Notes: a model not told the origin generated them from the letters alone. A stretch of 64,000 nt of DNA from a virus (IMGVR_UViG_3300045996_002451:19172-83171); one strand, 5' to 3'. Positions 782 through 62,828 are shown, numbered from the stretch's first letter. Translations and numbers: made by a program.

Positions 782-804
782 GGCGACCTCCTGTTACACG
801 GGTA

Positions 805-1179
805 TCAAGTGTTGTACTCAGATCCTGCGACCGGTTGAAACGTCGCACAAATGCTTACGACTACTCCGCCCGCATCAAGATTAGGTAGATCGGTATATTC
901 CAACCGCGTAAACTGGGTAGGCGGTTCAAGCAGTAGGGTGCGCACGCGGTTGATTAGGCGCTCTACCGGCGAGGTAGCCTCGCGGTTTACCGCAGCCAGG
1001 GTGCTGCGCAGCGCTTCACCCCAGTCTGCGGTAGCAGTGATCTCGTAACAACCTTCACCCAGCGCACTGAGTTGAAAGAGCATGCCCTGGTCCTCGTACG
1101 GACGCAGGGCACGCAGAAACAGGTCTAAGCACTCGGCTCCGTAGAAACGGACCGCGGACCGTTCATCAGCGGGGTACAT
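805..1179 (-). CDS. hypothetical protein
   Basis: 124-aa ORF with AGGAG RBS. Confidence 0.6.
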   Translation of the reverse strand: MYPADERSAVRFYGAECLDLFLRALRPYEDQGMLFQLSALGEGCYEITATADWGEALRSTLAAVNREATSPVERLINRVRTLLLEPPTQFTRLEYTDLPNLDAGGVVVSICATFQPVAGSEYNT

Positions 1180-1276
1180 TGCAGTTCTACTCCTAGAGTT
1201 TCCGGGTGGGCGTACACGAGTTCCCCCAGGGCCTGGGACACGGTTTTCCCGTAGCCCCAGGCACCGGGCTTCTCTT

Positions 1277-2206
1277 TTACGTAGCTTCGGTAGTTGCCGT
1301 CCCCGAAGGGTTCGATGCAGATAATTGTGCGATCAGCTCTTTGATCGCCTGGCCCGCTAGTTGGTCGCATCGTTCGTTCTCCACATGACCGCGGTGTCCC
1401 CGCACGTGCTGGAAACGGAGGAGTCCGCAGCTCCTGACCAGGTCGACGACTGGTTGTAGGCGCTTCATACTTTCCGCTTGGAAGTTCTTGTAGGGAGCCT
1501 TGCCTTCGAGCGGAGGCCGTCCTAGTAAAGCATGCAGCGACATAATCGTCCACTCACTATCCGTAATGAGGTCCACAAAGAGCCGGGCGCGTAGCTCGGG
1601 GGCAAAGAACTGCAAGGCACGCGAGACGCACTCCAACTCGGCCCGGGGCGAGCCGACCTGTTCCAGCCACTCGGCAAAGCTGTACTCGTGGGTTTTACCG
1701 GCTGACCGGATCATGTACCCGTAGCCCTGCACCGAGTGCTTGAGAGAGACTCCGGCGTCCGTCCAGACCTGTACGTACTTCAGCAGCTTGCGCTCTGTTT
1801 CCGGCAGGTAAAACTTGTGCTCGTCTTTGGGGCAGTAGACCACCGTGATCGGCTGCTGTCCGTGTCCGCGCTCCCGAAGTAGCTTGAGCGTCGAAACGCT
1901 GAGGCCATCCCAGAACACCAGGAGCGCATGTGCCGAGGCGCTGATCTTCTGGATGCTCTCCTCTCGCGCCCGACTGCGGTTTTCGGGATGCTTTTCGTAG
2001 TCGGGGTAGTGTTCCCGGGCAGGTTTACCCAGGACACGTTCACTGTACCAGGACGCGAACGTGCTGATGCCATGCGCGTCGGGCTGCTTACCCGCGGTGA
2101 CCAGGGTCACATCCGGACCCAATTGCATCTGATCCAGGACCCGCTTGACGTACTCGTAGTCCTTGAAGTCGCGGGCGCCCCAAACAGCTAACAAACGTTC
2201 AGACAT
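1277..2206 (-). CDS. SLOG (YspA/DUF2493-like) domain fused to RNase HI
   Basis: N-term AVWGARDFKDYEYV...LLVFWDG; C-term RNase H motifs VWTDAG, RAELE, ITDSEW, HVRGHRGHVENERCDQLA. Confidence 0.85.
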   Translation of the reverse strand: MSERLLAVWGARDFKDYEYVKRVLDQMQLGPDVTLVTAGKQPDAHGISTFASWYSERVLGKPAREHYPDYEKHPENRSRAREESIQKISASAHALLVFWDGLSVSTLKLLRERGHGQQPITVVYCPKDEHKFYLPETERKLLKYVQVWTDAGVSLKHSVQGYGYMIRSAGKTHEYSFAEWLEQVGSPRAELECVSRALQFFAPELRARLFVDLITDSEWTIMSLHALLGRPPLEGKAPYKNFQAESMKRLQPVVDLVRSCGLLRFQHVRGHRGHVENERCDQLAGQAIKELIAQLSASNPSGTATTEAT

Positions 2207-2415
2207 TACGCCTCCTTGCGAAAGATGATCTCCTCGTTGCGCCGGATCTGGGCCAAATTACCTTTGACCAGGATGGCGTAGTACCAGGGAGAATGTTCGT
2301 CCGCAGCAGCGCGAACATCCACCACTGCTACCTCGTGGTCTTGCGAGTAGACCTGCAATACCAGGATGCAGGTCCCGTCCAAAAGCGTTACAAAGTCGCC
2401 GATTTTGATGTGCAT
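2206..2415 (-). CDS. hypothetical protein
   Basis: 69-aa ORF whose stop overlaps the next start. Confidence 0.5.
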   Translation of the reverse strand: MHIKIGDFVTLLDGTCILVLQVYSQDHEVAVVDVRAAADEHSPWYYAILVKGNLAQIRRNEEIIFRKEA

Positions 2416-2423
2416 GACTATTC

Positions 2424-2472
2424 AAAAAAGAAGACCGCCCTGCTGCCGAATGGGGCGAGCAAAGGCGGTCTT
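2424..2472 (-). terminator. intrinsic terminator
   Basis: AAGACCGCC...GGCGGTCTT stem with a U-tract on the minus strand. Confidence 0.55.
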
Positions 2473-2492
2473 TAACTATTCAGTATGACGCG

Positions 2493-2912
2493 TTATACCA
2501 ACGCGGGTTCCCGTACGTCGACGGGCTGCGTGAGGCACAGATCGCGATTGACGCGTTGCAGCAGTTCCAGGTTGCGCACGATCTGGATGTTGCGCGTATC
2601 GTGCTCGGAAGCGGGTAAGGTACGCAGTTCTTCACACAAGGTGTACTGCATCGTGGCGAGGAGCCCTTGCAGCAACTGGTACGGATGCAGCTCGGACGCG
2701 ATGAAGGGAAGTTCCCCGACCTGGCGGATCGCCTCGTTCCGGATCTGATTCTCGGAAGAGACCTGGTCCAGGAAGGAAACGTCGGGCATCTGGACGGAAA
2801 GTACGGCGCGCAACTCTTGACGCACGGAGATGAACAGGACAGAGATGGCACTCGGACCCGTCAACCCTACCTCGGCCAGTAGTTTGCGGACTTGTTCGGC
2901 TACATCAGTCAA
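2493..2912 (-). CDS. hypothetical protein
   Basis: 139-aa ORF, coding-like composition. Confidence 0.55.
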   Translation of the reverse strand: MTDVAEQVRKLLAEVGLTGPSAISVLFISVRQELRAVLSVQMPDVSFLDQVSSENQIRNEAIRQVGELPFIASELHPYQLLQGLLATMQYTLCEELRTLPASEHDTRNIQIVRNLELLQRVNRDLCLTQPVDVREPALV

Positions 2913-3002
2913 AATCGCGCCTCAGTTCTAAAGATTAACAAAGGGAGGGACAAGCAGGGTTAGTGTATCAGAAGTGCGCCTGCTTGTCCACCACGAAAGC
3001 GC

Positions 3003-6153: not shown

Positions 6154-6209
6154 GTTCGTTCTCCGGTACACGGGTAACGGTGGGGTAGCTCTTACCCCAC
6201 CGTTAACAC

Positions 6210-8776: not shown

Positions 8777-9053
8777 TGGAAGCTCTCTTTCTGAACAGTG
8801 ACGAGGCTCTCTAGGAGCCGGGTTGTTACACGGGTATCAACAGTGGAAGGAGGGAACCCGTAACCCCAAACCTTCCCCAACCCTACACGCAATCTAGCGG
8901 TCCGCACCCTCTGAAAAGAGAACGGACCGCTTAACTTTCCTACCTGCACCTACTGTTCCAGCGAGGCTGTACGCGAACGCGCCTGCTTGTGCGGCCCACT
9001 TACCGCGGCCTTCTGGAAAAGGGATAGCCAGTATGAAGTTGTGAATGGCTTGG

Positions 9054-12920: not shown

Positions 12921-14504
12921 TTAGGCAACGGGCAGTTCTTCGAGGCGATGACCATACTGCGCGTGTAGCCAGCGAAGTCCCGTCTCAGTATCACTGAAGT
13001 CACCGTTGAGCTGCGCTTCGTAGGCTGCCGCCACCGCTTCTCCGATGTGGGGACCGCCCTTGTACTCGAAGTAAGGCATCACGTGCCGTCCGAGTACCAG
13101 TTTGGCGGGCGGCTCGTAGTAGACGTTCAGCTTTTCGGCTAGCTCCAGCATGAAGAACGCGGCTACCGGCATCCCGGTTGGCAGCGGCGGTCGACCGCTG
13201 GCGTCTGCTTCCATCAGCCACGCAAGCATCTGGATGTTGGCCGGAGCCAGGCGCTTGGCCAGACGACGCACCACTGTCTCTGGTCGATCGCTGTTCAGGA
13301 TGTCCCGGTGGGCCAGGTGATCCTCAACCAATGGTACTACCTGCGCGGTGATCTGCGGATGCATCTTGGTGATCCCGATCCGGTCCAGGAACCGCTGGGC
13401 GATGGGACCGCCTGCGCGTTCATGCCCGTGACTGGTCCAGCGCAGCTTGCCCTTTTTCTCCAGTTGCGCGGTGACTACCGGCTTGGCGAAGTCGTGACAG
13501 AGGGCGGAAAACACGAGTACCGCCCTGGCTTCGGGTTCCAACTTTTCGCGGATAGCGATGTTGTTGGCCGCATCCACGACGTACCGGGTGTGCCGGTAGA
13601 CATCCCCTTCGGGATGCCACTCCGGGTCTTGTGGGCACCCATACATCCGGCGCAGTTCTGGGTAGAAAACGTCCCAGAGCGTGCTGGACAAGAACTCCAG
13701 TCCGAGGGAAGGACGGGTGCTCTTGGTGGCCCACTTCAGCCATTCTTCCGCTACTCGTTCCCGAGAGACACAGCGCCCTTTGTCGGTGAGTCGACTGAGG
13801 GCGAGGTAGTCGCCGGTGGCACGGTAGAAGTTGCGCCCGTGCCAGGTCTTTAACTCCGGGTATGCTCCCAGTTCCGGATCCGGCGCATCCTCGCGATACC
13901 GCTGGCGGATCTGGATGCCCAGGTTGTTGAGCAGATCCTCGGTCTGCACCTCGACGTCCCAACCAAAGCGGGAAACGAACTGCATCCCGCGTAGGGCCCG
14001 TAGTGGATCGTCCGCGAAGAGGTTCATGTCTACTGCACGCAGCAGGCCTTGCTGGATGTCTTCGACCCCGTCAAAGAAGTCGAGTAGCTCTCCGGTGAGA
14101 GGATCAAACAGGAGCGCGTTACACGTGTAATCGCGCCGCCGACAGGCTTCGCTAGGAAGCATCTGAGGATCGTACTCGACTACATAGTCGTGGCGGGTCG
14201 GATCGTTGCCCTGCCTGCTGTCTTTACGCGGTAGGCTGACGTCGTAGGTGGCGCCGTCCACGCGCCACTTGAGGACACCAAAGCTGGAACCTTCCAGTTG
14301 GACGGAGCCGGGCTGCTGTTCCAGAAGGTCCTGAAGAGCTGGAAAAGGGAGGCCGTAGACCTCGACGTCGATGTCCTTGGGTTCGAGTCCTAGGAGGGCG
14401 TCGCGGACACAGCCTCCGACCAGGTAGCCCTGAAGGCCTCTAGCCTTCAGGTCCAGTAGGAACTTCCGGAGTTGGGACGTCACCGGGATCTTTAGGGTCT
14501 GCAT
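12921..14504 (-). CDS. cca: CCA-adding tRNA nucleotidyltransferase with HD domain
   Basis: LVGGCVRDALLG..PKDIDVEV, RRDYTCNA, DDPLRALRGMQF, SRERVAEE, HPEGDVYRHT, LCHDFAK. Confidence 0.93.
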   Translation of the reverse strand: MQTLKIPVTSQLRKFLLDLKARGLQGYLVGGCVRDALLGLEPKDIDVEVYGLPFPALQDLLEQQPGSVQLEGSSFGVLKWRVDGATYDVSLPRKDSRQGNDPTRHDYVVEYDPQMLPSEACRRRDYTCNALLFDPLTGELLDFFDGVEDIQQGLLRAVDMNLFADDPLRALRGMQFVSRFGWDVEVQTEDLLNNLGIQIRQRYREDAPDPELGAYPELKTWHGRNFYRATGDYLALSRLTDKGRCVSRERVAEEWLKWATKSTRPSLGLEFLSSTLWDVFYPELRRMYGCPQDPEWHPEGDVYRHTRYVVDAANNIAIREKLEPEARAVLVFSALCHDFAKPVVTAQLEKKGKLRWTSHGHERAGGPIAQRFLDRIGITKMHPQITAQVVPLVEDHLAHRDILNSDRPETVVRRLAKRLAPANIQMLAWLMEADASGRPPLPTGMPVAAFFMLELAEKLNVYYEPPAKLVLGRHVMPYFEYKGGPHIGEAVAAAYEAQLNGDFSDTETGLRWLHAQYGHRLEELPVA

Positions 14505-14727: not shown

Positions 14728-15368
14728 CGCCGTGCTTCTCGTAGGAGCTGGTCTGCTTCTTCCGGCGTCAGGCGCTCCAAAGGCATCGTTGGTGCCTGGT
14801 TACTGGCCTTGGTCGCAACGGTTGCCGGATCGGGAGGGGTCAGGAGTTCGAGATCTTTACCAGTCAGTTTTTTGGCGAACTCGATGTTGAAACGTGTCCA
14901 GAAGAGTTGGGTAATGCACATCCCCACGTGCGTGGACGCGTAGAAAAACGCCATGAACACGTGCCCGTGTTGGGTCAGGGTTAAGGTTAACCCAAGTATC
15001 GACAGGTAGCTCACGCAGCTCAGTACTTGCGTTAACGCGTTGCTGCGGAGCTGCATCTCCAGCCAGCTTTGCAAGCCTTTGCCTCTTGTGGAACGGTCTT
15101 CGAGCTGTTTGGAGAGCCCGATGGCTGCCATGATGAGGATCGCGGGGAAGATCAGCCCGAGCAGTGCCGTCGTGGTCAGGAGCATGTACGAGAGCAGCAT
15201 CCCGTAGTTCTGGTAAGCCGGGAGGGTAAGTAGCCCTGCGGTTAACAGGTGGAGCAGGATACTGAACGTGGATGTCAAGTAGCGATTTGTTTTGATAGGC
15301 GGTCCCGCGGCATCCAGGTAAGCGCGGGTAAGTACGGGGACATCCTTGCTGGTATAAACGTTGGCCAT
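14724..15368 (-). CDS. multi-pass membrane protein
   Basis: About four hydrophobic segments. Confidence 0.65.
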   Translation of the reverse strand: MANVYTSKDVPVLTRAYLDAAGPPIKTNRYLTSTFSILLHLLTAGLLTLPAYQNYGMLLSYMLLTTTALLGLIFPAILIMAAIGLSKQLEDRSTRGKGLQSWLEMQLRSNALTQVLSCVSYLSILGLTLTLTQHGHVFMAFFYASTHVGMCITQLFWTRFNIEFAKKLTGKDLELLTPPDPATVATKASNQAPTMPLERLTPEEADQLLREARR

Positions 15369-17631: not shown

Positions 17632-17694
17632 TGCACACTCTCTTTCGGCCCGTTTACGGGCGTTACACGTGTATCACACGTCATACAACACTAC

Positions 17695-22906: not shown

Positions 22907-22914
22907 GACTCCTG

Positions 22915-23760
22915 TTACACGGGTACTCGGCGCGTGAGTTCCTGCCGGATCTCTTCCAGCATGGCGCCCATATGATTCTGGCCCTGTTCATCCGGCCCAT
23001 CGCCCCAGTACGCATCCCACGGTGCCGCATGAATGAGCGTTCTGCCCCCCGTAGCGAGGAGACGTTCTGCCAGCAGTGGGTGCTGATCGAACTTGGCCCA
23101 TAAGAGCTGAGCCATCACGTGTCCGCGTAAGGTGTCCCAGTCCGGGATCGCTTCGACCTTACCACCCAGCTTCTTCGCCGCTTCCGGGGTCGGAGCTAGC
23201 TCTACTTTGGTCCGCTCCTTCGGGTCTGCGCACTTGGCACCCTGATAGGCGTGCTCCGCAGTCAGCCAGAGCGTTCCCTCGAAGATCACGGGGTGTGAGC
23301 TGAAATTACTCAGCCAACTCCACTCCGGCGTCTTGCTGTTGAACCGAATGGCGTCATCCGGCTGAAACCGGTGGGGCCAGCGCTGCGCGGCTTCCTGGAT
23401 CAAGAGATGCGTGTGACAGAACTGATTGTCGGCACAATAGCAACAGAGCACCGCGCGGCCCTTCTTTTCCAGACCAAAGAGATAGAGCTGTCGCCAGGAG
23501 GCTCCGGCAGACCGCATGATCGCCTGGTACTGCTCAGTATACTCGGCGTCGCTCAGCGGTGGGTAGCCTGGGTACGGCATCGGGAGACCGCGCTGGAGCG
23601 CCGTGTGATTCTTGTGTCCCAGGACCATCGGCCAGTTAGGCGCGAAGCCGCGGGCCCAGTCTTTACCGCTCTTGACCGTCACGTCCACGTAGTGGTCTAG
23701 CAGTGGGGTGGAGCCGCGTAGTTGGGCCCGGCGTAATTGGACTACCTGGATCTCACTCAT
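22915..23760 (-). CDS. NADAR (YbiA) domain protein with an N-terminal Cys/His domain
   Basis: WLSNFS, TAEHAYQGAK, AKFDQH, LLATG, DAYWG, GQNHMG..LEEIR; N-term LCCYC...CH. Confidence 0.88.
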   Translation of the reverse strand: MSEIQVVQLRRAQLRGSTPLLDHYVDVTVKSGKDWARGFAPNWPMVLGHKNHTALQRGLPMPYPGYPPLSDAEYTEQYQAIMRSAGASWRQLYLFGLEKKGRAVLCCYCADNQFCHTHLLIQEAAQRWPHRFQPDDAIRFNSKTPEWSWLSNFSSHPVIFEGTLWLTAEHAYQGAKCADPKERTKVELAPTPEAAKKLGGKVEAIPDWDTLRGHVMAQLLWAKFDQHPLLAERLLATGGRTLIHAAPWDAYWGDGPDEQGQNHMGAMLEEIRQELTRRVPV

Positions 23761-26461: not shown

Positions 26462-26497
26462 GGTAGCAACTCCTGTATGACGTGTGTTACACGGGTA

Positions 26498-26887
26498 TCA
26501 ACGCGAGCCCCGTCGCTTGGCCTCAAACCACTCCAACTCCAGCTCTTGTAGGCTGACCGGACGGAGTTCTGGAAAGAACAGCGTCGGATCCCAAGGCTCT
26601 TCGTAGCGGAGCAGTTCCTCGGCGCGCTGCTTCAGCTCCCAGTTACCGCTGTAACCATTACACACGTAGGCCAGTTCACAGCCGGTGGTGTGAGGGTTGA
26701 CGAACAGGTGAATGTCCGTCTCGATGCGGGTAGCGAGGAGACGTAGGGAACAACGCAGGTACGTCATCATCTCGGCGTCGGCATCCGCCAACTCGATCGC
26801 CAGGTCTAACGCGCGCGCCTGGAGAGGGTCGTTGTTCCAGGATCCCAGCACGTACAGCGTGTTGAGGCGTAGTTTAATGTTCTTCAT
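26498..26887 (-). CDS. hypothetical protein
   Basis: 129 aa, GAGGTG RBS. Confidence 0.6.
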   Translation of the reverse strand: MKNIKLRLNTLYVLGSWNNDPLQARALDLAIELADADAEMMTYLRCSLRLLATRIETDIHLFVNPHTTGCELAYVCNGYSGNWELKQRAEELLRYEEPWDPTLFFPELRPVSLQELELEWFEAKRRGSR

Positions 26888-30929: not shown

Positions 30930-31475
30930 CTAGCCTTCAAGTCGCTTGGGCCGTTCCATCCGAGGTATCCGGTCCAGGGAGACCAGGAGCAGGTAGACTA
31001 CCGTCCAGAGCTGGCAGTTGTTCTGGATCTCCGCCGACCACTCCCGAATGTTCTCCGTGTAGTAGCTACGGATGAGTTCTTTTGGGAAGCCTTCGAAGTA
31101 GCAGTCCGCCAGCTCGTTACCCGTGTACTCCGGATCGAGGGGCGGGGTGACAAAGCACAACCGACTGAGGTCCGCGACGATGGGCTGCTCGGAGAGCACC
31201 GTCAACTTCCAGTTGTAGAAGTTATTGCGCAGGATCAGTCGGAGTCCCCAGTCCGGACGGTACAGCTCAAAGACCGGCAGCACGATGCTGCACGACCGGT
31301 GTTCGCCCACGATGTGGATCAACTGATCCCGGCGCAGTTGGTAGTCCATGCCGATACCCATCAGGGCGGCAATGTCCGACCGGATGAACGCGACTTGTTG
31401 AGTAGCGCCGTCTTGATGGTCAGCCGGTTTACTCAACCAACGTGCGGCCCACCATTCAGTCAGAGGTATTCTCAT
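30930..31475 (-). CDS. hypothetical protein
   Basis: 181 aa, GAGGA RBS. Confidence 0.65.
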   Translation of the reverse strand: MRIPLTEWWAARWLSKPADHQDGATQQVAFIRSDIAALMGIGMDYQLRRDQLIHIVGEHRSCSIVLPVFELYRPDWGLRLILRNNFYNWKLTVLSEQPIVADLSRLCFVTPPLDPEYTGNELADCYFEGFPKELIRSYYTENIREWSAEIQNNCQLWTVVYLLLVSLDRIPRMERPKRLEG

Positions 31476-35326: not shown

Positions 35327-35358
35327 GGCAGCACACCTGTTACACGGGTAACTCCTGG

Positions 35359-40041: not shown

Positions 40042-40135
40042 GGAACACCTTTCGTTACACGTGTAACCGTTTTACGCTAGAGACAGGGTTGCTGGGTAGA
40101 GGGCTAGCGCACCCCCTACCCAACCCTACACGCAG

Positions 40136-41669: not shown

Positions 41670-43493
41670 TTAGCGCATCGCGTAGGCCGACCACCGCGCA
41701 CGGTGAGCCTGGCGTCGTTCTTTCCAACCACTCTTGCTGCTCTCGAACACCTCAGGCACCGCGACCGGCTCACCGGCCACGACCGGAACCTCAAGCTTCA
41801 CTACTTGCGTCCGGCAGCAGTCACACACTCCACAACCCAGGATGGAGCGATCGAACAGCAACTGACCGTTCGTGCTGTCCTGGATCTCGAAGTAATCAGA
41901 GATCACCTGCTGTCGGCATCCCTGAGCCTGCACGTAGGTACGCAGACCCTGGATGCGACGGCGCTCAGCCAGCGAGAGCTGGAGCGTGAGGGTCTTGACT
42001 ACCTGCTTCACCTCCACCACTTCCGTGAGCTTGATGTGCAGACCGATCGGACCCGGCACCGCCTTGAGCGCGCCTTTGTTCTGCGCGATCTCCATCGCCC
42101 GCTGCAGTTGCACAGTGGGCTTCTTGAGCTGGCTGCAGAGCATCATCGTCGAGAGGTGATACTCCTTACCCACCACCAACGTGTTGAGGGAGGCCACCGG
42201 TCGTTGCAGCGTCAGGCTGTAACCGATCGGCAGGTCATAACCGCGGGTGATTGCTCCCACCTTTTCCAGGTGAGACAGCATCACGCGCACCTGAGTCTCA
42301 TCACCCCCGGTCTGGGCAATCAGCTCGGCCATGGAGAGCACCCCCTCACGGCGCTTACCCAGCTTGACCACCAGCGTTTCGTACAGCTTGGCAATCTGCG
42401 CGGACGACACCTTACCGTGATCTGCCCGTAGCTCCATCGAGAGCAGGTCAGACTGGGAAAGGAGAAGGACACACTTGCTCGGTAAGCCATCCCGTCCAGC
42501 ACGGCCTGCTTCCTGGGTGTACGCTTCCAGGCTGCGGCTCGGGGACCAATGGGCGACCAGACGTACGTTCGGCTTATCCACACCCATCCCAAACGCGATG
42601 GTGGCGATGATGACCTTCAGCTCATCCTTGATGAACGCATCCTGGGTAGCCGCACGCTCTTCCTTACCCATACCGGCGTGGTAATGGGCCGCGTTGACTC
42701 CCAGCTCCTGGAGCCGTGTGGCCAGCGTCTCACATGCCTGGCGCGTATCGGCGTAGATGATCGAGGCACCACCCTTGGCTTCTTCGAGCAGTTCCAGGAT
42801 GCGCACCATCTTCAGCTCATCGTGATTCACCACCTCGACGCTGTAGCGCAGATTACCGCGGCGTACCCCGTGGTTGATGGTGTGCCACTCTCCACCAAAG
42901 CAGGAGGTGATGGCTTCCTGCGTACCCGGCGTAGCGGTAGCCGTCAGGGCGAGTACACGGGTAACACCCAGCTCGCGGGCCACCTCACCCAGGAACAGGT
43001 AATCCGGACGGAACTCGCTACCCCACAGGGAGAGGCAGTGTGCTTCATCCACAACCAGGAAGTCCACCTTAGCCTGCTTGAGGGTGTTGATGAACTTGGC
43101 CTGGCGCAACCGCTCCGGCGCCACGTACAGCACGTCGACCTGCTTCAGGTCATCGAAGCCTTCTTCGCCGTCCTGCATGTTGAAGCGGGAGATCACCTCC
43201 TTGATCTCCTCCGCGCTCATCTGCGAGTTGACGCACGCTACCCGGTCACGCAGGGTGGTCGGGATGCCTTCGACCTGATCCTTCTGCAAGGCGATCAGGG
43301 GCGAGATCACGATGGTCTTCCAACCCTGAGCCAGGGCAGGCACCTGATAGATGCGGCTCTTACCACCACCCGTGGCAAGCAGTACGAGCGTGCGGCTGTT
43401 CTCTTCCAGCACCTTACCAATGGCTTCAGCCTGAGCCGGGCGGAAACTGTCTGCGCCCCAATGGGCCTTGTGAAACGCGTTAACGGTATTCAT
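41670..43493 (-). CDS. recQ: RecQ-family helicase
   Basis: FRPAQ, ATGGGKS, VDEAHCLSLWGSEFRPDY, LTATAT, YHAGM, ATIAFGMGVDKPNVR, YTQEAGRAGRDG, CRQ...CGVCDCC. Confidence 0.95.
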   Translation of the reverse strand: MNTVNAFHKAHWGADSFRPAQAEAIGKVLEENSRTLVLLATGGGKSRIYQVPALAQGWKTIVISPLIALQKDQVEGIPTTLRDRVACVNSQMSAEEIKEVISRFNMQDGEEGFDDLKQVDVLYVAPERLRQAKFINTLKQAKVDFLVVDEAHCLSLWGSEFRPDYLFLGEVARELGVTRVLALTATATPGTQEAITSCFGGEWHTINHGVRRGNLRYSVEVVNHDELKMVRILELLEEAKGGASIIYADTRQACETLATRLQELGVNAAHYHAGMGKEERAATQDAFIKDELKVIIATIAFGMGVDKPNVRLVAHWSPSRSLEAYTQEAGRAGRDGLPSKCVLLLSQSDLLSMELRADHGKVSSAQIAKLYETLVVKLGKRREGVLSMAELIAQTGGDETQVRVMLSHLEKVGAITRGYDLPIGYSLTLQRPVASLNTLVVGKEYHLSTMMLCSQLKKPTVQLQRAMEIAQNKGALKAVPGPIGLHIKLTEVVEVKQVVKTLTLQLSLAERRRIQGLRTYVQAQGCRQQVISDYFEIQDSTNGQLLFDRSILGCGVCDCCRTQVVKLEVPVVAGEPVAVPEVFESSKSGWKERRQAHRARWSAYAMR

Positions 43494-48270: not shown

Positions 48271-48711
48271 CTAGGCGGTGAGGGTACGTGCCTGTACCAG
48301 GAGCGCTTCCAGGTAGTAGGCGTTGTTCTTCTCGACGTTAGCCTTGGCGATCAGGTCATTCAATTCGGCGTGGTAGGGCTTACCTACGTGCCGGTCCGGG
48401 TGGTAGGTACGGATCAGGGTGCGGTACAGGGCCTGGCTGTCTGCTGCGGTCGCTGCCTGGTAGTCCGGGATGTAGTCAGCGTAGCACTCACTGGCGTCAT
48501 CGTAGTACTCACTGTCATCGTACTGTGCACGGTACTGTGCGTAGAAGGCCTCACGTCGGGCCTGCTGTGCTGCGTTAGCCTCCTTCTCTGCTGCCCAGGA
48601 CTTCTTCATACCAGGGGTGACACCTTCACGTAGGTAATCCACTAGGGCATCACCGAGGTCACTGATCAGGTCACATACCTGATGGAGGGTGTTGAGGATC
48701 TTCATTGACAT
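48271..48711 (-). CDS. protein with a C-terminal J-domain-like segment
   Basis: LYRTLIRTYHPDR (HPD motif); AGGAG RBS. Confidence 0.6.
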   Translation of the reverse strand: MSMKILNTLHQVCDLISDLGDALVDYLREGVTPGMKKSWAAEKEANAAQQARREAFYAQYRAQYDDSEYYDDASECYADYIPDYQAATAADSQALYRTLIRTYHPDRHVGKPYHAELNDLIAKANVEKNNAYYLEALLVQARTLTA

Positions 48712-48736
48712 ATCTCCTAGGGGTGTAGGTGGGTGC

Positions 48737-49021
48737 TTAGCGTGCAACGTTGATGAGGGAGTAGAACTGTGTGAGACCACAAGACTCAGCCATTAGGACA
48801 ATGGTCTTACCATACACAGGTGTTACGCCTACCCAGGCACGTTCTGTGCGTAGGTAATGTACTGACTGATCTACTACCTCTTGCTTAGTACCAGTGAACT
48901 TAGGTAGTTCGTACAGCTCATAGCTGTTATCTGTGTTGGGGTTGTACATACACATCTGGTAGGTAGCTACGGGTGTAGGTAGGGGTGTGAGATCAGGTAC
49001 GATACCGTGTAGTCGTTTCAT
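48737..49021 (-). CDS. hypothetical protein
   Basis: 94 aa, AGGAG RBS; first gene of the leftward block. Confidence 0.55.
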   Translation of the reverse strand: MKRLHGIVPDLTPLPTPVATYQMCMYNPNTDNSYELYELPKFTGTKQEVVDQSVHYLRTERAWVGVTPVYGKTIVLMAESCGLTQFYSLINVAR

Positions 49022-49399
49022 TGCTATCTCCTATACGTGTGTGGGTGTATACCAGGATGTACCTGGTAAAGCTTAGGGCTAGAGTTGCACTAGCCTGTAG
49101 GTATAGGTATCTATATCTACTAACTATCTAAGCTTGCAGGGTACTTGGGTAATCGTTACGGGATAGATCTTTAGCCCTATCCTGATTACTTAATGCTGCT
49201 ATGTGCACATCAATGCGTCTTCCATTGAATGTAGCTATCCACCTTAGCACTACGTGTCACTAAGATAGGTATCTACTTGGCTATTGCCTCGCTATCTCGA
49301 CCTGCGTATCCCTCAATCAATTGAGTGTGATTCCGCTTAGCTAATGCTAATTACCAGGTCTACTTCATCGCGTGGAAGAAGATCGCTCGTGTTGTGTGT

Positions 49400-49626
49400 G
49401 AGAGAAGGGGGTGGGCTAAAACAAACCCTAGCCCCCTTCACCTATTACATGTAGTGCTCATGAAATGGATCATTTTTTGGAAGGTCCCTTTAGGCCCGGT
49501 ACTCCGTTCAGGTAGCACGTCCGGACCGGTGGAAAGTGTGGGTGGAGAGAGGGGGTGGGCTCAGAAAAAAGAGAGCCCCTCTTGATTGATTCATGTAGTG
49601 CTCATGAACCGGATCAAGTTTTGGAA
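49400..49626. repeat. two imperfect ~80-bp direct repeats, period 144 bp
   Basis: GGGGGTGGGCT at 49407 and 49551; CATGTAGTGCTCATGAA at 49448 and 49592. Confidence 0.8.
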
Positions 49627-49969
49627 CTCTCTTTAGGGCCCGGGAGATCGTTGGGGAAGGAATAGTGGGAGGGGTAGGTTGCTTAGGTAAATAGCCACTG
49701 AGTATGACGGGTCATACAAAAATCTTGTTTAGCAGACGTACTGTGGCGGTAAACAGGAATAGGTCAGGTGAAGTGGGTCTCAAGAAGACCCACCCACATC
49801 CTTGGTGTCACGAAGGCCGTCCTTCTCCAGCTCGCTTCCTTTGTGATACGCTTTCTCTTAGCGCGCATATAATACTGGAAAGAGAAAGAGGGTGCGCGGT
49901 TACCCGTGTATCAATAATGTCCCAAAAGGGACTGCGTGAAGTGTTCTTGTATGTTTCAGGAGTTGTTAG

Positions 49970-50980
49970 ATGTCTAAGAAGACGAGTTCCACGATTGACG
50001 TTCAGGATCCCACCAATACCATCCTGGCTCGGTTAGAAGACGGGGCGGATCGTTTGGACCAGGTCATCGCGCCGATCGAAGTCGATCGACTGCTGCCCGA
50101 TCCTTGTCAGCCGCGCAAGTCTTTTAATCGGATCGACGAGTTGGCGAAGAGCATGAGTGAGCACGGACTCCAGGAAGCCCTGGTGATTCGTCCGGCACAG
50201 GGAGCCGCCAACCGTGGGAAATACTGGGTTGTCTCCGGAGAACGGCGCCTAAGAGCCGCCAAGGAGTTGGGGTGGGATAAGGTAGACTGCCGGATCAAGA
50301 CGCTGGACCCCACCAAGTCGGCGATCCTGGCATTAGCCCTGAACATCCACCGAGAAGATCTCTCCGAGATCGAGAAGGGCGAAAGCTGCAAGCGCATCAA
50401 GACCATGATCGATGGCACGTGGGATGAGGTGGCGGCACTGGTCGGCATCAGTCCGATCTACGCGCGCCAGCTCGGCAGCTTGCTGAACGTCACGGATAGT
50501 GTGAAGGAACGGGTACGCAATGGTACTCTACCGACCCGCACGGCGATCGCCTTGAAGGCTCTCCCGGACAAGGACCAGGAAGAGTGGGCGAAGAAGGCGG
50601 TGGAAGAGCACCTGACGGCAGAGCAGGTCCGGACCCAGACGCAGCATCTGGCCCGACCCCGGATGACCCGTCACGTCCCGGATCTCCAGGTACCGACCCG
50701 CATCGAGCAGACCCCGGTCGAGGCGCCGGTCAATACCGGACGCGCCGGTACCAAGACTAAGCTACTAGAAGACAGTGGAGTGGCCCTTACAAACATCCGC
50801 AAACTGATCGAGCGCCAGAGCTGGTCACCTTCCGAGGTGACACCCCGCCAACAGGAACTCCTCAAGGACCTGTACCGCGAGGTCGCAGCCCTCCATCAGG
50901 AGATCTCGGACATCTATCTACCGTTCCGCCCGGACGCTAAAGCCGAAGCAAAGAAGTTGGCCACGGCCCTTCCCTTCTAA
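49970..50980 (+). CDS. parB: ParB/Spo0J-family CTPase DNA-binding protein
   Basis: PDPCQPRKSF, ELAKSM..HGLQEALVIR, VSGERRLRA, NIHREDLS.IE, HTH WDEVAALVGIS. Confidence 0.92.
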   Translation: MSKKTSSTIDVQDPTNTILARLEDGADRLDQVIAPIEVDRLLPDPCQPRKSFNRIDELAKSMSEHGLQEALVIRPAQGAANRGKYWVVSGERRLRAAKELGWDKVDCRIKTLDPTKSAILALALNIHREDLSEIEKGESCKRIKTMIDGTWDEVAALVGISPIYARQLGSLLNVTDSVKERVRNGTLPTRTAIALKALPDKDQEEWAKKAVEEHLTAEQVRTQTQHLARPRMTRHVPDLQVPTRIEQTPVEAPVNTGRAGTKTKLLEDSGVALTNIRKLIERQSWSPSEVTPRQQELLKDLYREVAALHQEISDIYLPFRPDAKAEAKKLATALPF

Positions 50981-51034: not shown

Positions 51035-51080
51035 CGTTTTAGGTTGAGTATGACGCGTCATACCCGTTTATACTGTCTAC

Positions 51081-51896
51081 GTGATCGTCGACGCTTACGT
51101 AGCCTACCCTGCCCTCGAAAGAGTGGCCCTCAACCGCAAAGACCCCCGCCTTAAACCCGCGTGGTTGTTACGTTACTGGTACCTGGTCCAGGAACTGGAA
51201 CCACTGGTCAGTCGGGAGCAGCTCTTTGCGGCATGGGCCGTGCTTGGAGTAACTCGCGGGAATATGCGCCAAGCGCTGGTGCGCGGGGACGGTGTCTATT
51301 GGGACAATCACGGAAAGGACGTCACGGTCTATTCTGCCGAGCAGCTGCACGCCTGCCTGGAGTTCCGGGTAGAGCGCCGGATCCGTCCGTCAGCGCAGCT
51401 ACTCCTGAGTACCGCGGCGTGGCATCAAAGCATGGCGGAGGACGCCATCCTTTCCTATAAGCTGCACAACGGCAAGACGGACCCGATCACCCACGCCCAG
51501 ATTGCCCAGCGTACGGGTTTGTCCCGGAAGACCGTGCAGCGCCACGTACGTCGGAGCCGTAAGGTCAACGCGGTGAAGCAGTGGATCACCATCCCCCTAA
51601 GCCCGACCCCCGAGAACTTGGAAGCTGTCCAGAAGATCCACCCTCGCGTCCATTTCCAGTTTCTGTTTCATCGCCAGAGGAAACACCTGGTGCAGCGGGT
51701 AGCGAACCGGTATCGTACGGGAGATCGGATCCTGGATCCAGGAGAGCGGGAGACACCACTAGGAGTGCGTCTACGCGCGCATGCAGCAGTACACGAGACT
51801 GGTGTGGAACGGGTGGGAGATCTGTGGGATGGCCAGGGTCTTGCGCACCTAGAAAAAATCTGTTACAGTGTGAGTACGGAAGGGGTATACTCCTAA
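51081..51896 (+). CDS. HTH DNA-binding protein, probably leaderless
   Basis: ITHAQIAQRTGLSRKTVQRHV; TATACT lies 6 nt before the GTG. Confidence 0.65.
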   Translation: MIVDAYVAYPALERVALNRKDPRLKPAWLLRYWYLVQELEPLVSREQLFAAWAVLGVTRGNMRQALVRGDGVYWDNHGKDVTVYSAEQLHACLEFRVERRIRPSAQLLLSTAAWHQSMAEDAILSYKLHNGKTDPITHAQIAQRTGLSRKTVQRHVRRSRKVNAVKQWITIPLSPTPENLEAVQKIHPRVHFQFLFHRQRKHLVQRVANRYRTGDRILDPGERETPLGVRLRAHAAVHETGVERVGDLWDGQGLAHLEKICYSVSTEGVYS

Positions 51897-51918: not shown

Positions 51919-52302
51919 GTGATTAAGGAAAGTCGGGTCAATAAAGGAAGAATAGGGGTCTATGCCCCTGATCATCCTGGCGCGAACAACCGAGGGTACA
52001 TACCGCGCTCCCGCTACACGATGGAACAGCATCTTGGCCGATACCTAAGGTCGGATGAAGAGGTCCATCACAAGGATGGCGATAAGCTAAACGACCAGCT
52101 AGAAAACCTGGAGATCTTGACCAAAGCTGAACACGCACGCAGACACCAGAGGGCGAAAAGTCCATTGGACTACAACCTTCTAAGTCAGCTACGAGAAAAC
52201 GGTTTGGGTTACAAGAAGATCGCCAAGGAGACGGGGTATGCCCTGTCTAGTGTCAAAGCAGCGTGTAAGCTTATCAATTTGGGGGCGATGGGTGTCGACT
52301 GA
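51919..52302 (+). CDS. HNH homing endonuclease with a C-terminal HTH
   Basis: MEQHLGRYL..DEEVHHKDGDKLND.LENL...EHARRH; GLGYKKIAKETG. Confidence 0.9.
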   Translation: MIKESRVNKGRIGVYAPDHPGANNRGYIPRSRYTMEQHLGRYLRSDEEVHHKDGDKLNDQLENLEILTKAEHARRHQRAKSPLDYNLLSQLRENGLGYKKIAKETGYALSSVKAACKLINLGAMGVD

Positions 52303-52739
52303 GGTACTGCAAGCCCGAGATGCGAGCCCCGGAGCTGTTGGCCGGGTCATCAAGCAGCAAAAACACAAACGCGAATAACAACGTGAACGTGACCGACGAC
52401 ATGATTGCTCCTGGCATCCTCGCTCAACTGAGCGGGATGGAGAGTGGTCTGGCCCTCGCGGCCTAATCGGCAGGGAACCTACTGCCCTGTTAACCCAAGT
52501 GTAGGCAGCCAAGCCGTGGAGACGGTCACCCAAAGCCAGGAGAAAGACCTGACCACCCCCTGGTCGTGGGGATTACAATAGCGACCTGTGCCGGTGGCAA
52601 ACATCGGATAGTGTGTAGGACCGCGACAGGTGTCCTATCTTCCGCTCTAGAAGAGTAGCGGCCAGCTACAAGCAGAGCTACGCTCGTAGAGTCTCAGGTG
52701 AACTATCTTAGGACCCGGGTTCAACTCCCGGCGCCTCCA
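52281..52739 (+). ncRNA. ssrA: tmRNA
   Basis: 5' GGGGGCG..TCGAC; 3' GACCCGGGTTCAACTCCCGGCGCCTCCA; G3:U70 pair; tag ORF 52371-52466 ending LALAA*. Confidence 0.95.
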
Positions 52740-53781: not shown

Positions 53782-54291
53782 ATGCACGTAACCGCCATGA
53801 ATTATTGCCAAGAAGCGCTCACCCGCATTGGTGGAGTTCATGGTCTGGACGTCCTGGAGATCGGAAGTCACAACGTGAACGGCAGCGTGCGCGAGCTATG
53901 CGCCGAAGCACGTTGTTACACGGGTATCGATCCTTGGCAGGGTCCCGGGGTGGATCTGGTCATCGAAGCCGCCAACTTTAATGGCAACGGGCAGTACGAC
54001 GTGGTCTTCTCAACGGAAGTCATGGAGCACGCGCCCCGACCGGAAGAAATCGTAGAGTGCGCGTGGCGCTCCTTACGACCCGGTGGCTATCTGGTGGTGA
54101 CCGCGGCAGGCGACCAGCGTCCGGTACACAGTTGCGACGGTAGTAAGAAGCTCAAACAGGGCGAGCACTACCAAAATATTACAACCGAAGAGATGGCATC
54201 CTTTCTCCAGGGATGGAATGTCATGGATCTATCCTATCTTCCGGGCGCGTGCGACGTTCGCGCCATCGCCCAGAAGCCAGGTGGACTGTAA
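53782..54291 (+). CDS. class I SAM-dependent methyltransferase
   Basis: VLEIGS.NVNG, YTGID...GVD, YDVVFSTEVMEH, LRPGGYL. Confidence 0.88.
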   Translation: MHVTAMNYCQEALTRIGGVHGLDVLEIGSHNVNGSVRELCAEARCYTGIDPWQGPGVDLVIEAANFNGNGQYDVVFSTEVMEHAPRPEEIVECAWRSLRPGGYLVVTAAGDQRPVHSCDGSKKLKQGEHYQNITTEEMASFLQGWNVMDLSYLPGACDVRAIAQKPGGL

Positions 54292-56314: not shown

Positions 56315-56458
56315 TGTCTGTTACACGGGTAACTTATATGAAGTTCTTCTCAGTACGCGTCGGAGATGAGATCTACCTCTACTACGGAGGTGAACTCGTC
56401 TACAAGCGCTGGCTTCGACTAGGTTACGGTCGAGTCTACAACGACTGGTAACCCAAAC

Positions 56459-59918: not shown

Positions 59919-59921
59919 TGT

Positions 59922-59993
59922 GGCCCTGTCGTCTAATGGTAAGGACGCCACTCTTTCAAGGTGTGAACGAGGGTTCGATTCCCTTCAGGGCTA
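59922..59993 (+). tRNA. tRNA-Glu(TTC)
   Basis: Loop CTTTCAA. Confidence 0.92.
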
Positions 59994-60008
59994 TGACTGG
60001 AAAACGAG

Positions 60009-60584: not shown

Positions 60585-60622
60585 TGTTACGTGCTCACAG
60601 ATGTGATACACTGTAACTACTT

Positions 60623-60695
60623 GGGGATGTGGCGTAGTGGCTAACGCACTTCACTGTCACTGAAGAGACCGCGGGTTCGAGTCCCGTCATCCCCG
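60623..60695 (+). tRNA. tRNA-Asp(GTC)
   Basis: Loop CTGTCAC; G73. Confidence 0.92.
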
Positions 60696-60699
60696 CTTT

Positions 60700-60772
60700 G
60701 GGACCGTAGCTCAACGGACAGAGCATCTGGCTTCTACCCAGTTAGTTGGGGGTTCGAGTCCCTCCGGTCCCA
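60700..60772 (+). tRNA. tRNA-Arg(TCT)
   Basis: Loop CTTCTAC. Confidence 0.88.
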
Positions 60773-60776
60773 TTTT

Positions 60777-60849
60777 GGATGTGTGGCGCAACGGATAGCG
60801 CACTGGCCTGCGAAGTCAGAGGTTGTGGGTTCGAGTCCCGCCACGTCCA
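60777..60849 (+). tRNA. tRNA-Arg(GCG)
   Basis: Loop CTGCGAA; GGA in the D loop. Confidence 0.88.
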
Positions 60850-60861
60850 CTGGTGTAACCA

Positions 60862-61113
60862 ATGGAAACTTTAGCTACCTTCTTGTGCGAAGAACAGGAC
60901 GCGGACTACGCGTTCTACCTGCTGGCAGTTACTTTAGGTATCTGCGAGCACAGTATGGACGCTTGGTACAAGAACAAGGCAGAGTTCTGTTCGAACACCG
61001 AGCTGAACCAGTTACTACACAGCATCATGTTCAAGCTGGTGGATGCTGGTTTGGTGCTTTGGCAGAATGGTGGGTTCAGATGGAACCCTGATGTGAAGCC
61101 ACTGAGCAGTTAG
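60862..61113 (+). CDS. hypothetical protein
   Basis: 83-aa ORF filling the gap between tRNAs. Confidence 0.6.
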   Translation: METLATFLCEEQDADYAFYLLAVTLGICEHSMDAWYKNKAEFCSNTELNQLLHSIMFKLVDAGLVLWQNGGFRWNPDVKPLSS

Positions 61114-61117
61114 GTTT

Positions 61118-61189
61118 CGGGGTGAAGTCCACTGGCTGGACGCATGCCTTGGGAGCATGAGGTAGCAGGTTCGATTCCTGTCACCCCGA
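61118..61189 (+). tRNA. tRNA-Pro(TGG)
   Basis: Loop CTTGGGA; C1-G72. Confidence 0.9.
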
Positions 61190-61306
61190 TTGGCGAAGCG
61201 CGGAAGGGCCGGGCGTGTTTCGCTTAATGGTGAACCATGGCCCCAGAGCGCAAGCCGGAAGCGGCGCCTTCGGGCGAAAAATGAGTGCAGCCGGTATCAC
61301 CACCCT

Positions 61307-61379
61307 CGGGACGTAGCTCAATGGACAGAGTACCTGGCTTCGAACCAGTTGGCTGAGAGTTCGAGTCTCTCCGTCCCGA
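61307..61379 (+). tRNA. tRNA-Arg(TCG)
   Basis: Loop CTTCGAA. Confidence 0.9.
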
Positions 61380-61433
61380 TCGATCGCGTTACACGGGTAA
61401 CATGATCTACTTGACAACCGCATAGCGATGTAT

Positions 61434-61505
61434 GGTGGCCGTAGCTCAATGGTAGAGCACTAGGTTGTGGCCCTAGAAACGCGGGTTCGATTCCCGTCGG
61501 TTACC
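61434..61505 (+). tRNA. tRNA-His(GTG)
   Basis: Loop TTGTGGC; encoded G-1:C73. Confidence 0.92.
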
Positions 61506-61788
61506 CTTTGGAACGGTTAGGTCTGGATCTGGGATGGCGGCTCCCGGAGAAATACCTACCCGTCCCATTTTTTAGCGCCTCCGTGGCCCTCTTTTCAAGG
61601 GAGACCATGGGGGCGCTAATTTTTGGGACCCCTTACCAGGAGGTACTGGATATAGATGGATAGGCTTACTAATAGAGGCAGTAGCTTACTAGTTAGAACG
61701 CTGCTTCTTGGTTAACAGTAGAGGCAGTAGCCTTGCATGCGTGCATGGGCCTCACGCACAAGGGAAAGCACGTGATTCACAAAAGTAC

Positions 61789-61817
61789 TTGTATGACGCG
61801 TCATACTAGGGTAAACT
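61789..61817 (+). promoter_or_regulatory. sigma70-like promoter overlapped by the palindrome GTATGACGCGTCATAC
   Basis: TTGTAT-17 nt-TAAACT; palindrome at 61791-61806. Confidence 0.6.
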
Positions 61818-61882
61818 CCTAGTGAGCTTGGTACTCCGCCCGCCAGTGGGGTACTGAGTCCTCCTTATCCAGCCAGAAACCC

Positions 61883-62116
61883 ATGCCTGAACGACGCTAC
61901 AAGATTTGTGACTGCCCAACAGAAGTAGGTGCCATCACGTGCTTCTGCCTGATCCCAACCGCCGACGAACTCAAGATTTTCTGGCCGGTGAGTGAAGATC
62001 TGGATCCGGACGCACATGCGGCCCTGGTTCGAGAAGCACAACGCTTGGAACGCTCCGAGCAAGACGCTTACCGCAAGCAGCCCACGGTCTCCTGGGCAGA
62101 AGCCACCCAGCTATGA
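61883..62116 (+). CDS. hypothetical protein
   Basis: 77 aa, ATGA overlap with the next gene. Confidence 0.55.
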   Translation: MPERRYKICDCPTEVGAITCFCLIPTADELKIFWPVSEDLDPDAHAALVREAQRLERSEQDAYRKQPTVSWAEATQL

Positions 62117-62805
62117 GCACTCCCCGCGTCACGGTCATCATGACCCACTACAATCAGCCGAAGTTCGCGCTAGAGGCGCAGCACTCGGTGGTGGGACAGA
62201 CGTTCCAGGACTGGGAGCTGCTTCTCTACGACGACGGTTCTGCCGCCACAAAGCAGCCGACGATCGTAGACGACCCGCGCATCAAGGCGCACTTTATGCC
62301 GGAGCTGGCGCCGCTGGAGCGCAAGTCCAGGACGCGGTACGCGGTCCTGAACAACCTGGGACTGCACGCTGCCCGCGGCGGGTTGATCACCTACCTCACC
62401 CAGGATGATCTGTACTTCCCGGACCGGCTAGAGCGGATGGTGCGCTACATGGATCAGCACCCGACCTGCAATAGCTGCTACGGCCCACAGGCGCTCTGGT
62501 ACTGGGAAAACGGGCGCTGGGTCAGCAAAGGCCTCCGGATCGCGCCTACGCTCGTTCTAGACCCCTTAAACGTCATCGATCACGACTCGGTGATGCACCG
62601 CGCCGCGGTCGGTCGTCAGTGCGGGGGTTGGCCGGAAGGCCCGGAGTTCTGGCGCAAGGCGGACGGCTACTTCTTCCGGGAGCTGATCAAGCTGGGCGGT
62701 CCGCTCCAGCGCATCGACGGTTACGAGCCGACCGATGTCCACCGCTTCCATCGCTCCAACCTGACGGATCACCTGGCCAAGAACGAGCTGGAAAAAGCGT
62801 TCTAA
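62113..62805 (+). CDS. GT2 glycosyltransferase (SpsA-like)
   Basis: VTVIMTHYN, QTFQDWELLLYDDGS, ITYLTQDD.YFPDRL, IDHDSVMHR. Confidence 0.9.
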   Translation: MSTPRVTVIMTHYNQPKFALEAQHSVVGQTFQDWELLLYDDGSAATKQPTIVDDPRIKAHFMPELAPLERKSRTRYAVLNNLGLHAARGGLITYLTQDDLYFPDRLERMVRYMDQHPTCNSCYGPQALWYWENGRWVSKGLRIAPTLVLDPLNVIDHDSVMHRAAVGRQCGGWPEGPEFWRKADGYFFRELIKLGGPLQRIDGYEPTDVHRFHRSNLTDHLAKNELEKAF

Positions 62806-62828
62806 CCGGCGTTACCCGTGTAACAACT

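Follow-up and report, generated by a model that had tools for sequence, protein, structure and literature searches.

Clamps formed by ParB proteins and cytidine triphosphate (CTP) are known from one centromere region in partition, from about a dozen operators in the case of KorB, and from dispersed chromosomal sites in the case of Noc. On plasmid RK2, about a dozen KorB sites are distributed over 60 kb. N15, the prophage of which is a proven plasmid, has a few dispersed SopB sites and the SopA ATPase. Among phages, the Cluster O mycobacteriophages (Corndog, Ryadel) carry more than 30 copies of TGTTCGGNNNCCGAACA, the function of which is not known, together with a ParB-like protein (PMC4351075). 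The ParBs of ParB-dependent thymine dioxygenase systems are without a DNA-binding domain (PMC13229309). Here we describe an orphan phage parB gene and a palindromic element, motif 1, found throughout a 64,000-nucleotide stretch of viral DNA (hereafter the window), which comprises bases 19,172-83,171 (G000:C1:19172-83171) of one 211,171-bp IMG/VR virus record. The record has linear ends, 58.8% G+C, and a CheckV completeness estimate of 98%, and the phage is a jumbo myovirus on the basis of its large terminase and tail sheath, both detected with PHROGs further along the genome. Coordinates are window positions unless marked as genome positions, and gene calls are based on open reading frames (ORFs).

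We propose, with a probability of about 0.5, that the phage carries a ParABS-derived system without ParA, in which parS-like sites at even intervals serve for the loading of ParB, which occupies the entire chromosome. Descent from a ParABS module is suggested because related phages still pair parA-parB with the same sites. An earlier note on this DNA, made from the sequence alone, had suggested a ParB clamp with a genome-wide role; the canonical fold of the protein, its intact CTP box, and the even distribution of sites all speak for that suggestion, while binding of ParB to motif 1 is a link that we infer from the likeness to parS and from co-occurrence. We found no paper in the literature describing such even tiling of ParB sites in a phage.

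An evenly spaced, parS-like palindrome

Exact copies of GTTACACGKGTAWC occur at 10 positions in the window (11 strand matches), compared with 0 expected from 100 shuffles, and copies with up to 2 mismatches occur at 19 positions, compared with 0.85 matches expected. The core TACMCGKGTA is kept at 17 of these 19 positions, and these are the very 17 copies, at exactly the same positions, that had been reported in the earlier note:

793..806: motif 1 GTTACACGGGTATC, at a stop/ribosome-binding site (RBS) junction
6165..6178: motif 1 GGTACACGGGTAAC, intergenic
8825..8838: motif 1 GTTACACGGGTATC, intergenic
14118..14131: motif 1 GTTACACGTGTAAT, inside a 527-amino-acid (aa) gene
17662..17675: motif 1 GTTACACGTGTATC, intergenic, overlapping a motif-2-like site at 17671-17686
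22914..22927: motif 1 GTTACACGGGTACT, core intact, at a gene junction
26486..26499: motif 1 GTTACACGGGTATC, at a stop/RBS junction
31116..31129: motif 1, top strand GTTACCCGTGTACT, core intact, inside a gene
35339..35352: motif 1 GTTACACGGGTAAC, intergenic, 6 bp past the upstream stop codon
37296..37309: motif 1 GGTACACGGGTAAC, intergenic
40054..40067: motif 1 GTTACACGTGTAAC, perfectly palindromic, between genes and upstream of an RBS
42952..42965: motif 1 AGTACACGGGTAAC, core intact, inside a RecQ-like helicase gene
49899..49912: motif 1 GTTACCCGTGTATC, in the parB leader, ending 57 bp before the ATG (49970)
53915..53928: motif 1 GTTACACGGGTATC, inside a methyltransferase-like gene (53782-54291)
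56320..56333: motif 1 GTTACACGGGTAAC, 6 bp past the 3' end of tRNA-Cys
61388..61401: motif 1 GTTACACGGGTAAC, 7 bp past the 3' end of tRNA-Arg
62811..62824: motif 1 GTTACCCGTGTAAC, between genes about 23 bp apart, 5 bp past a stop codon and 4 bp before the next start codon

Across the whole genome, 41 sites lie within 2 mismatches of GTTACACGTGTAAC (the 41 best sites), and 46 sites carry the exact core TACMCGKGTA (the 46 core sites), compared with 0.8 expected in Markov-3 simulations. Alignment of the 41 best sites showed information within 14 bp only, flanked by a less strongly conserved T on the left and A on the right; the full element is therefore the 16-mer tGTTACACGGGTAACa. When these weak outer T/A positions are included, the 16-mer is identical to canonical parS TGTTNCACGTGAAACA at 13 of 16 positions in its common form and at 14 of 16 in its palindromic form, which bears out the earlier description of the sites as parS-like. 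Among the matches listed in an exact motif-1 scan of IMG/VR, only single chance matches were present.

Motif-1 sites span all 211 kb without clustering. The earlier note had described them as dispersed, and a whole-genome scan had been set beforehand as the test that could refute this; the scan did not do so, returning 46 core sites over 211 kb, with gaps of 1,423 to 8,982 bp (mean, 4.5 kb; coefficient of variation [CV], 0.39). The gap CV of the 41 best sites was 0.43, compared with a mean of 0.98 under uniform random placement, and this regularity was equalled in 0 of 20,000 simulations, a result that held with the numbers of intergenic and genic sites kept as observed. The 5 weaker core sites fill the largest gaps of the 41-site set.

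Among the 46 core sites, 42 have the center ACGG/CCGT and 4 have ACGT, and a CCGG center is absent. Each asymmetric site combines a parS-like half (GTTACAC) with a half that has C at position 6 (GTTACCC), and C at position 6 is the base that separates the Noc-binding site (NBS) from parS (PMC7383237). Avoidance of CACGTG and CCCGGG, considered as a cause of the asymmetric core, is just mild in the genome (48 versus 67 expected and 59 versus 98 expected, respectively).

Placement of motif 1 relative to genes

Thirty of the 41 best sites are intergenic, despite a genome that is only 13.6% non-coding by ORF-based gene calls (binomial p = 7e-18). Among 30 sites between co-directional genes, 18 begin no more than 12 bp past the upstream stop codon; two sites lie 6-7 bp past tRNA 3' ends, and several end 2-12 nt ahead of a start codon. 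Roughly 16 of the 46 core sites fall within genes, and the four that the earlier note had assigned to gene interiors (14118, 31116, 42952, and 53915) are indeed found there. Orientation relative to local transcription is unbiased (18:19), and no conserved promoter-like flank or T-run was found around the 41 aligned sites.

That most sites lie just past stop codons or tRNA 3' ends, and that the stem forms either way round, could point to an RNA- or promoter-level element, either a small hairpin for processing or termination or a promoter for phage-encoded RNA polymerases. We consider such an element extremely unlikely. The predicted RNA hairpin (5-bp stem, 4-nt loop) is weak, at -1.8 to -2.5 kcal/mol, and its loop changes with orientation, which is itself unbiased; in addition, neither a T-run nor a conserved flank accompanies the sites, about a third of them lie inside genes, and those that end 2-12 nt before a start codon leave scant room for a 5' untranslated region. 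Placement, free orientation, bare flanks, and a weak hairpin together speak against a promoter, terminator, or RNA element and favor a protein that binds DNA as a dimer. The unbiased orientation fits a dimeric binder, and the copy in the parB leader, which the earlier note had correctly placed just upstream of this gene and which begins 25 bp past the end of a TATAAT (49868-49873), associates the motif with parB itself.

Site orientation alternates almost perfectly (+-+0+-+-+-+-+-) between genome positions 138.9 and 198.0 kb, outside the window. Alternation was rejected as a genome-wide signal; a hand count gave 20 runs versus about 18 expected, which is not significant.

The ParB protein

By its domains, its CTP box, and its predicted fold, the phage protein is a member of the ParB/Spo0J/Noc CTPase family:

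49970..50980, plus strand: parB, 336 aa; ParB_N CTPase domain, ParB helix-turn-helix (HTH), linker, and C-terminal helical hairpin

Pfam matches comprise ParB_N (PF02195; 5e-16) and HTH_ParB (PF17762; 1.5e-11). Noc and Spo0J chains are the best matches among solved structures by sequence alignment, and Noc is so in fold too. The AlphaFold2 model has a predicted local distance difference test (pLDDT) score of 77, with a low-confidence N-terminus, and was matched by Foldseek to the Caulobacter ParB-parS structure 6T1F with a TMt of 0.86 and a root mean square deviation of 2.4 Å. The GERR CTP box (SGERRLRAA), Q47-P48-R49, N125, and R128 are all conserved. The catalytic Glu of the ENxxR box is replaced by Leu124, and Leu is also present in the phage relatives P0002 and P0003; bacterial members of the ParB clade retain Glu at this box in the clade alignment. 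Caulobacter ParB with a substitution of the catalytic Glu (E135A) binds CTP and does not hydrolyze it (PMC8367383), and by analogy CTP hydrolysis is probably impaired in the phage ParB.

The C-terminal dimerization domain ParB_C (PF23552) is missing in all members of the clade and present in the canonical matches. In the model, a disordered linker (about aa 230-259) is followed by the helical hairpin, and the C-terminus carries a conserved LPF. With the exception of P0010, every clade member terminates in LPF or LPY, preceded by a hairpin with a W-PS-V..Q motif, and this conserved end could be a short docking peptide for a partner protein. The phage ParB has no N-terminal peptide resembling the ParA-stimulating LG[KR]GL, nor is a Noc-like N-terminal membrane-targeting sequence evident in it, although no dedicated test for the latter was made. 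A related-locus search found no ParB relatives within IMG/VR.

Absence of ParA and related loci

The earlier note had reported that no parA flanks parB, and this was upheld and extended to the genome as a whole by profile and tblastn searches for a distant copy. The PF13614 (AAA_31) profile has no match in the genome, and the single weak match of the PF01656 (CbiA) profile is a CTP synthase, not a ParA. A tblastn search with a relative's ParA likewise gave no match in the genome and no remnant in the 1.26 kb upstream of parB, where parA is found in relatives:

48706..49969: strand-switch region, 1.26 kb non-coding, at the boundary of the leftward and rightward gene blocks; place of parA in relatives

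Homologues of the phage ParB form a small clade well apart from chromosomal ParBs. In two phage contigs, L003 and L006, the parB product is 60-61% identical and parA lies directly upstream. The phage ParB is without 13 N-terminal residues of the ParA-linked ParBs P0002 and P0003 (R..MDLSAL; MAFFT-aligned to canonical LGRGLSAL). With parA-parB kept in relatives and the N-terminal segment missing here, the loss of ParA looks real and secondary. The label "orphan" in the earlier note thus holds insofar as the genome has no ParA, and is refined to secondary loss since L003 and L006 keep parA-parB.

L003 carries 8 copies of motif 1 in 21 kb, of which 7 are intergenic and all 8 obey the same center rule. 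Motif 1 is also present in L006, and tiling was judged only in L003, the longer of the two contigs. The positions in L003 are not orthologous to those of the phage, and so density appears to be conserved rather than place, which argues for selection on density and not on particular genes. Furthermore, since tiling is seen in the parA-bearing L003, it would predate the loss of ParA.

The ParA encoded beside ParB in these relatives also brings to mind classic plasmid-prophage partition, in which the phage would persist as a low-copy extrachromosomal replicon with N15-like dispersed centromeres and a host or undetected ParA. No integrase was found in the genome, so that a persistent state would be extrachromosomal. 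However, we regard this explanation as very unlikely. There is no ParA-type ATPase in a genome that CheckV estimates to be 98% complete, the lone CbiA-like match being the CTP synthase; the N-terminal ParB segment of relatives is missing; 46 even sites would be unnecessary for partition; and the phage has the look of a large, virulent-style myovirus (about 40 tRNAs, terminase, tail sheath).

Clade members from bacteria, at about 40% identity, are encoded by orphan parB genes. A 9.1-Mb bacterial genome contains 4 copies of GGTACGCGTACC, 3 of them within 8 kb around parB, clustered and not tiled. Copies around bacterial orphan parB genes are as follows:

L002, positions 4418, 8037, and 11961: GGTACGCGTACC
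L008, positions 919 and 3814: GGTACGCGTACC
L005, position 9922: GGTACGCGTACC

The bacterial orphan ParB and GGTACGCGTACC may represent an uncharacterised ParB-type local regulator. A sigma-70 family gene adjoins parB in L002 and L008.

A second palindrome and the HTH neighbor

The genome carries 16-20 copies of a second palindrome, motif 2 (GTATGACGCGTCATAC), with 16 counted within 2 mismatches. These are nearly always intergenic, lie 13-155 bp ahead of start codons, and sometimes abut motif 1. Motif 2 is kept in L003 and L006, upstream of parA-parB in both. Among the matches listed in an exact motif-2 scan of IMG/VR were unrelated contigs of about 20-46 kb with one copy each. Copies in the window, and the gene directly downstream of parB, are the following:

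2483..2498: motif 2 GTATGACGCGTTATAC, intergenic
49702..49717: motif 2 GTATGACGGGTCATAC, in the strand-switch region upstream of parB
51048..51063: motif 2 GTATGACGCGTCATAC, in the interval from parB to the HTH gene, 17 bp ahead of the HTH gene start
61791..61806: motif 2 GTATGACGCGTCATAC, intergenic
51081..51896, plus strand: HTH protein, 271 aa, directly downstream of parB

The 271-aa protein has weak matches to sigma-70 region 4/winged HTH domains at aa 134-162 and is a candidate binder of motif 2. Its pairing with parB is kept in L003 (43% identity for the HTH protein), and its other homologues are found in the bacterial-looking loci L125 and L127. Homology between this neighbor and the sigma-70 gene beside the bacterial orphan parB was considered and rejected, as the HTH stretch alone aligns (E = 0.15).

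Motif 2 and the HTH neighbor keep open either a KorA/KorB-like pairing or a swap of binders and sites. In a KorB/KorA-type system of global transcription control, motif-1 sites would be operators at transcription-unit boundaries, and loaded clamps would slide to promoters and be locked there by the HTH protein at motif 2, thereby timing or silencing gene blocks. KorB acts likewise on RK2 (PMC11790492). The phage has two dispersed palindrome families, with motif 2 placed 13-155 bp upstream of starts, and 5 of the 16 motif-2 copies have a motif-1 site no more than 150 bp away, compared with 2.1 expected, although this adjacency is just marginally above chance (p = 0.046). L003 keeps the parB-HTH pair along with both motifs; motif 2 precedes parA-parB in both L003 and L006, and in the phage it precedes the HTH gene; and a spacing of about 4.5 kb is a plausible operon length. 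Nevertheless, some 16 of the 46 core sites fall within genes and sites also follow tRNA genes, site positions are non-orthologous between relatives, promoter-like flanks are not conserved, and a separate strand-specific promoter-like motif is present (see below). We therefore view transcription control of this type as possible, though unlikely.

A swap would mean that motif 1 is bound by another protein, for instance the 271-aa HTH protein, and that ParB acts on motif 2 or near its own gene only. The bacterial GGTACGCGTACC shares the center ACGCGT with motif 2 in the same register, and the recognition helix of the phage ParB is non-canonical. In addition, L125 and L127 carry an HTH homologue and GTTACGCGCGTAAC, with no ParB in the 9-21 kb that is readable. 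However, these two loci, read in part, also hold a sequence matching motif 2 at 12 of 16 positions; carrying both motif-like sequences, they do not discriminate between the two candidate binders. The resemblance to parS belongs to motif 1 and not to motif 2, and L007 encodes a ParB (38% identical) with a motif-1-type palindrome, GGTTACGCGCGTAACC, about 570 bp upstream of parB, while neither a homologue of the HTH neighbor nor a motif-2-like site was found there. We thus consider a different binder of motif 1 quite unlikely.

In L125, GTTACGCGCGTAAC lies within two 26-bp perfect palindromes (8933-8958 and 15065-15090), the flanks of which differ between copies and are self-complementary in each. 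One of these palindromes adjoins a TnpB-like gene. The covarying flanks suggest a hairpin element in L125.

A proposed model of genome-wide ParB occupancy

In the model that we favor, the motif-1 sites would be parS-type loading sites for the phage's own ParB, and ParA, together with the N-terminal ParB segment kept by relatives, would have been lost in the phage lineage. Each site would be a nucleation point for ParB dimers, which would bind CTP, close as clamps, and slide outward. With sites every 4.5 kb or so and never more than 9 kb apart, neighboring spreading zones would overlap, so that the whole 211-kb chromosome would carry ParB. Replacement of Glu by Leu would slow CTP hydrolysis and prolong clamp residence. 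The purpose of such a system would be genome-wide occupancy (compaction, organization, or positioning of phage DNA, and possibly shielding) rather than ParA-driven segregation from a single centromere.

Several observations weigh against this model. Even spacing and intergenic placement would also be compatible with one operator per transcription unit, and the near-universal asymmetric center of motif 1 is unusual for a symmetric dimer. The recognition helix of the phage ParB (GISPIYARQL...RTAIAL) departs from the canonical one at parS-reading residues (GISP versus GKSR and RTAI versus GHAR), and so the resemblance of motif 1 to parS has no residue-by-residue counterpart in the protein. A second dispersed palindrome and a conserved HTH neighbor are present, and HTH homologues occur with GTTACGCGCGTAAC in the ParB-free readable portions of L125 and L127. 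Finally, the contig is linear and estimated to be 98% complete, so that about 2% of the genome lies outside it.

A more elaborate version of the model is that a hydrolysis-impaired ParB clamp, loaded at about 46 even sites and fed by the phage CTP synthase, coats and condenses the whole chromosome into a ParB-CTP body that serves as a protein-based compartment for organizing replication and packaging and as a shield against host nucleases or SMC-type defenses. We hold this version to be distinctly improbable, but if true, the ParB-CTP body would be a ParA-independent, genome-wide viral use of the ParB CTP switch. More generally, selection seems to act here on the spacing of the sites as such, and the phage is a natural example of this. 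How far clamps travel, whether hydrolysis-poor clamps are used in nature, and what a virus gains from whole-genome ParB occupancy become approachable questions, and a few purified components and short DNA substrates should suffice to address them in vitro.

Genome context

The genome is organized in a leftward block (genome positions 1-67.9 kb), a rightward block (69.1-195.8 kb), and a final block that again runs leftward. The rightward block opens with parB, which adjoins the 1.26-kb non-coding strand-switch region of lower G+C. This region contains two imperfect direct repeats of about 100 bp, some 144 bp apart (49370-49640), each with a G-rich hairpin (gggggtgggct...agccccc) and the block catgtagtgctcatgaa; the repeats may be origin iterons or small RNAs. 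A megablast search against isolated phages gave tRNA matches only.

ARAGORN predicted 41 tRNA or tmRNA genes in the window (the account for the genome is about 40 tRNAs). These include a tmRNA-like gene just downstream of the HTH gene and a selenocysteine tRNA in the tRNA array:

52281-52739, plus strand: tmRNA-like gene, tag GREPTALLTQV*
59921-59994, plus strand: tRNA-SeC(tca)

A strand-specific motif, AGATTGCGTGTAGGGGTG, distinct from both palindromes and a candidate promoter of the phage, is present in the leftward block in 7 copies, all of them on the minus strand:

8881, 9511, 23814, 29788, 36875, 38887, and 40794, minus strand: AGATTGCGTGTAGGGGTG

Outside the window, the phage encodes a full-length CTP synthase (G000:C1:200029-201681, minus strand; L010:4030-5682) with CTP_synth_N (1.7e-92) and GATase domains, the best matches of which are 57% identical and taxonomically mixed. 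Such an enzyme is notable beside a CTP-dependent ParB, but its role may be mere nucleotide supply.

Comparison with known systems

The closest functional models for this locus are KorB/OB with KorA and Noc/NBS, and the closest phage precedent is the Cluster O mycobacteriophages. As with KorB/OB of the IncP plasmid RK2, a ParB-family protein is accompanied by palindromic sites dispersed over the replicon and located at or close to promoters, one of them at its own gene (PMC11790492). The likeness extends to KorA in that another family of operator-like palindromes is present, as is a nearby gene for a small HTH protein (PMC11790492), although contact between ParB and the HTH protein is hypothetical here. 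Unlike RK2, the sites of which have not been shown to be evenly tiled, the phage has 46 sites on 211 kb with a CV of 0.39. Furthermore, KorB works with the ParA protein IncC, whereas the phage is without ParA, and KorB is an active DNA-stimulated CTPase (PMC11790492), whereas the phage ParB has Leu in place of the catalytic Glu.

The Noc/NBS system of Firmicutes likewise consists of a ParB paralogue without a ParA role and many dispersed 16-bp palindromes, and most phage sites carry C at position 6 in one of their halves, as in NBS (PMC7383237). The phage sites differ in being parS/NBS hybrids at this position, the replicon is a phage, and the C-terminal domain of the protein is different. With chromosomal ParABS (Spo0J/ParB), the phage shares the fold, the GERR CTP box, HTH_ParB, a parS-like site, and, in relatives, an adjacent parA. 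However, chromosomal sites cluster near the origin and those of the phage are tiled, and the phage is without ParA, LG[KR]GL, and ParB_C and has changes in the catalytic Glu and in recognition-helix residues.

The phage resembles N15 in having ParB-family sites at several separate places in the genome and differs from it in having 46 such sites and no ParA ATPase. Unlike the ParBs of thymine dioxygenase systems (PMC13229309), its ParB has HTH_ParB; a Tet_JBP search gave no match in the phage, its controls being silent as well, and a role of this kind was set aside rather than excluded. Similarities to Cluster O are more extensive: these too are lytic-looking phages with no integrase or parA and with dozens of dispersed dyad-symmetric repeats, about a third of which are inside genes and the orientation of which is unrelated to transcription (PMC4351075). 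However, by our own computation the 35 repeats of Ryadel are randomly spaced (CV 1.03), its ParB-like protein has ParB_N only and no ParB HTH, and TGTTCGGNNNCCGAACA has a 3-bp spacer; the phage described here is set apart by its complete ParB, the likeness of its site to parS, and a tiling that is even by statistical test. The comparison nonetheless suggests a possible function for the dyad repeats of the Cluster O mycobacteriophages.

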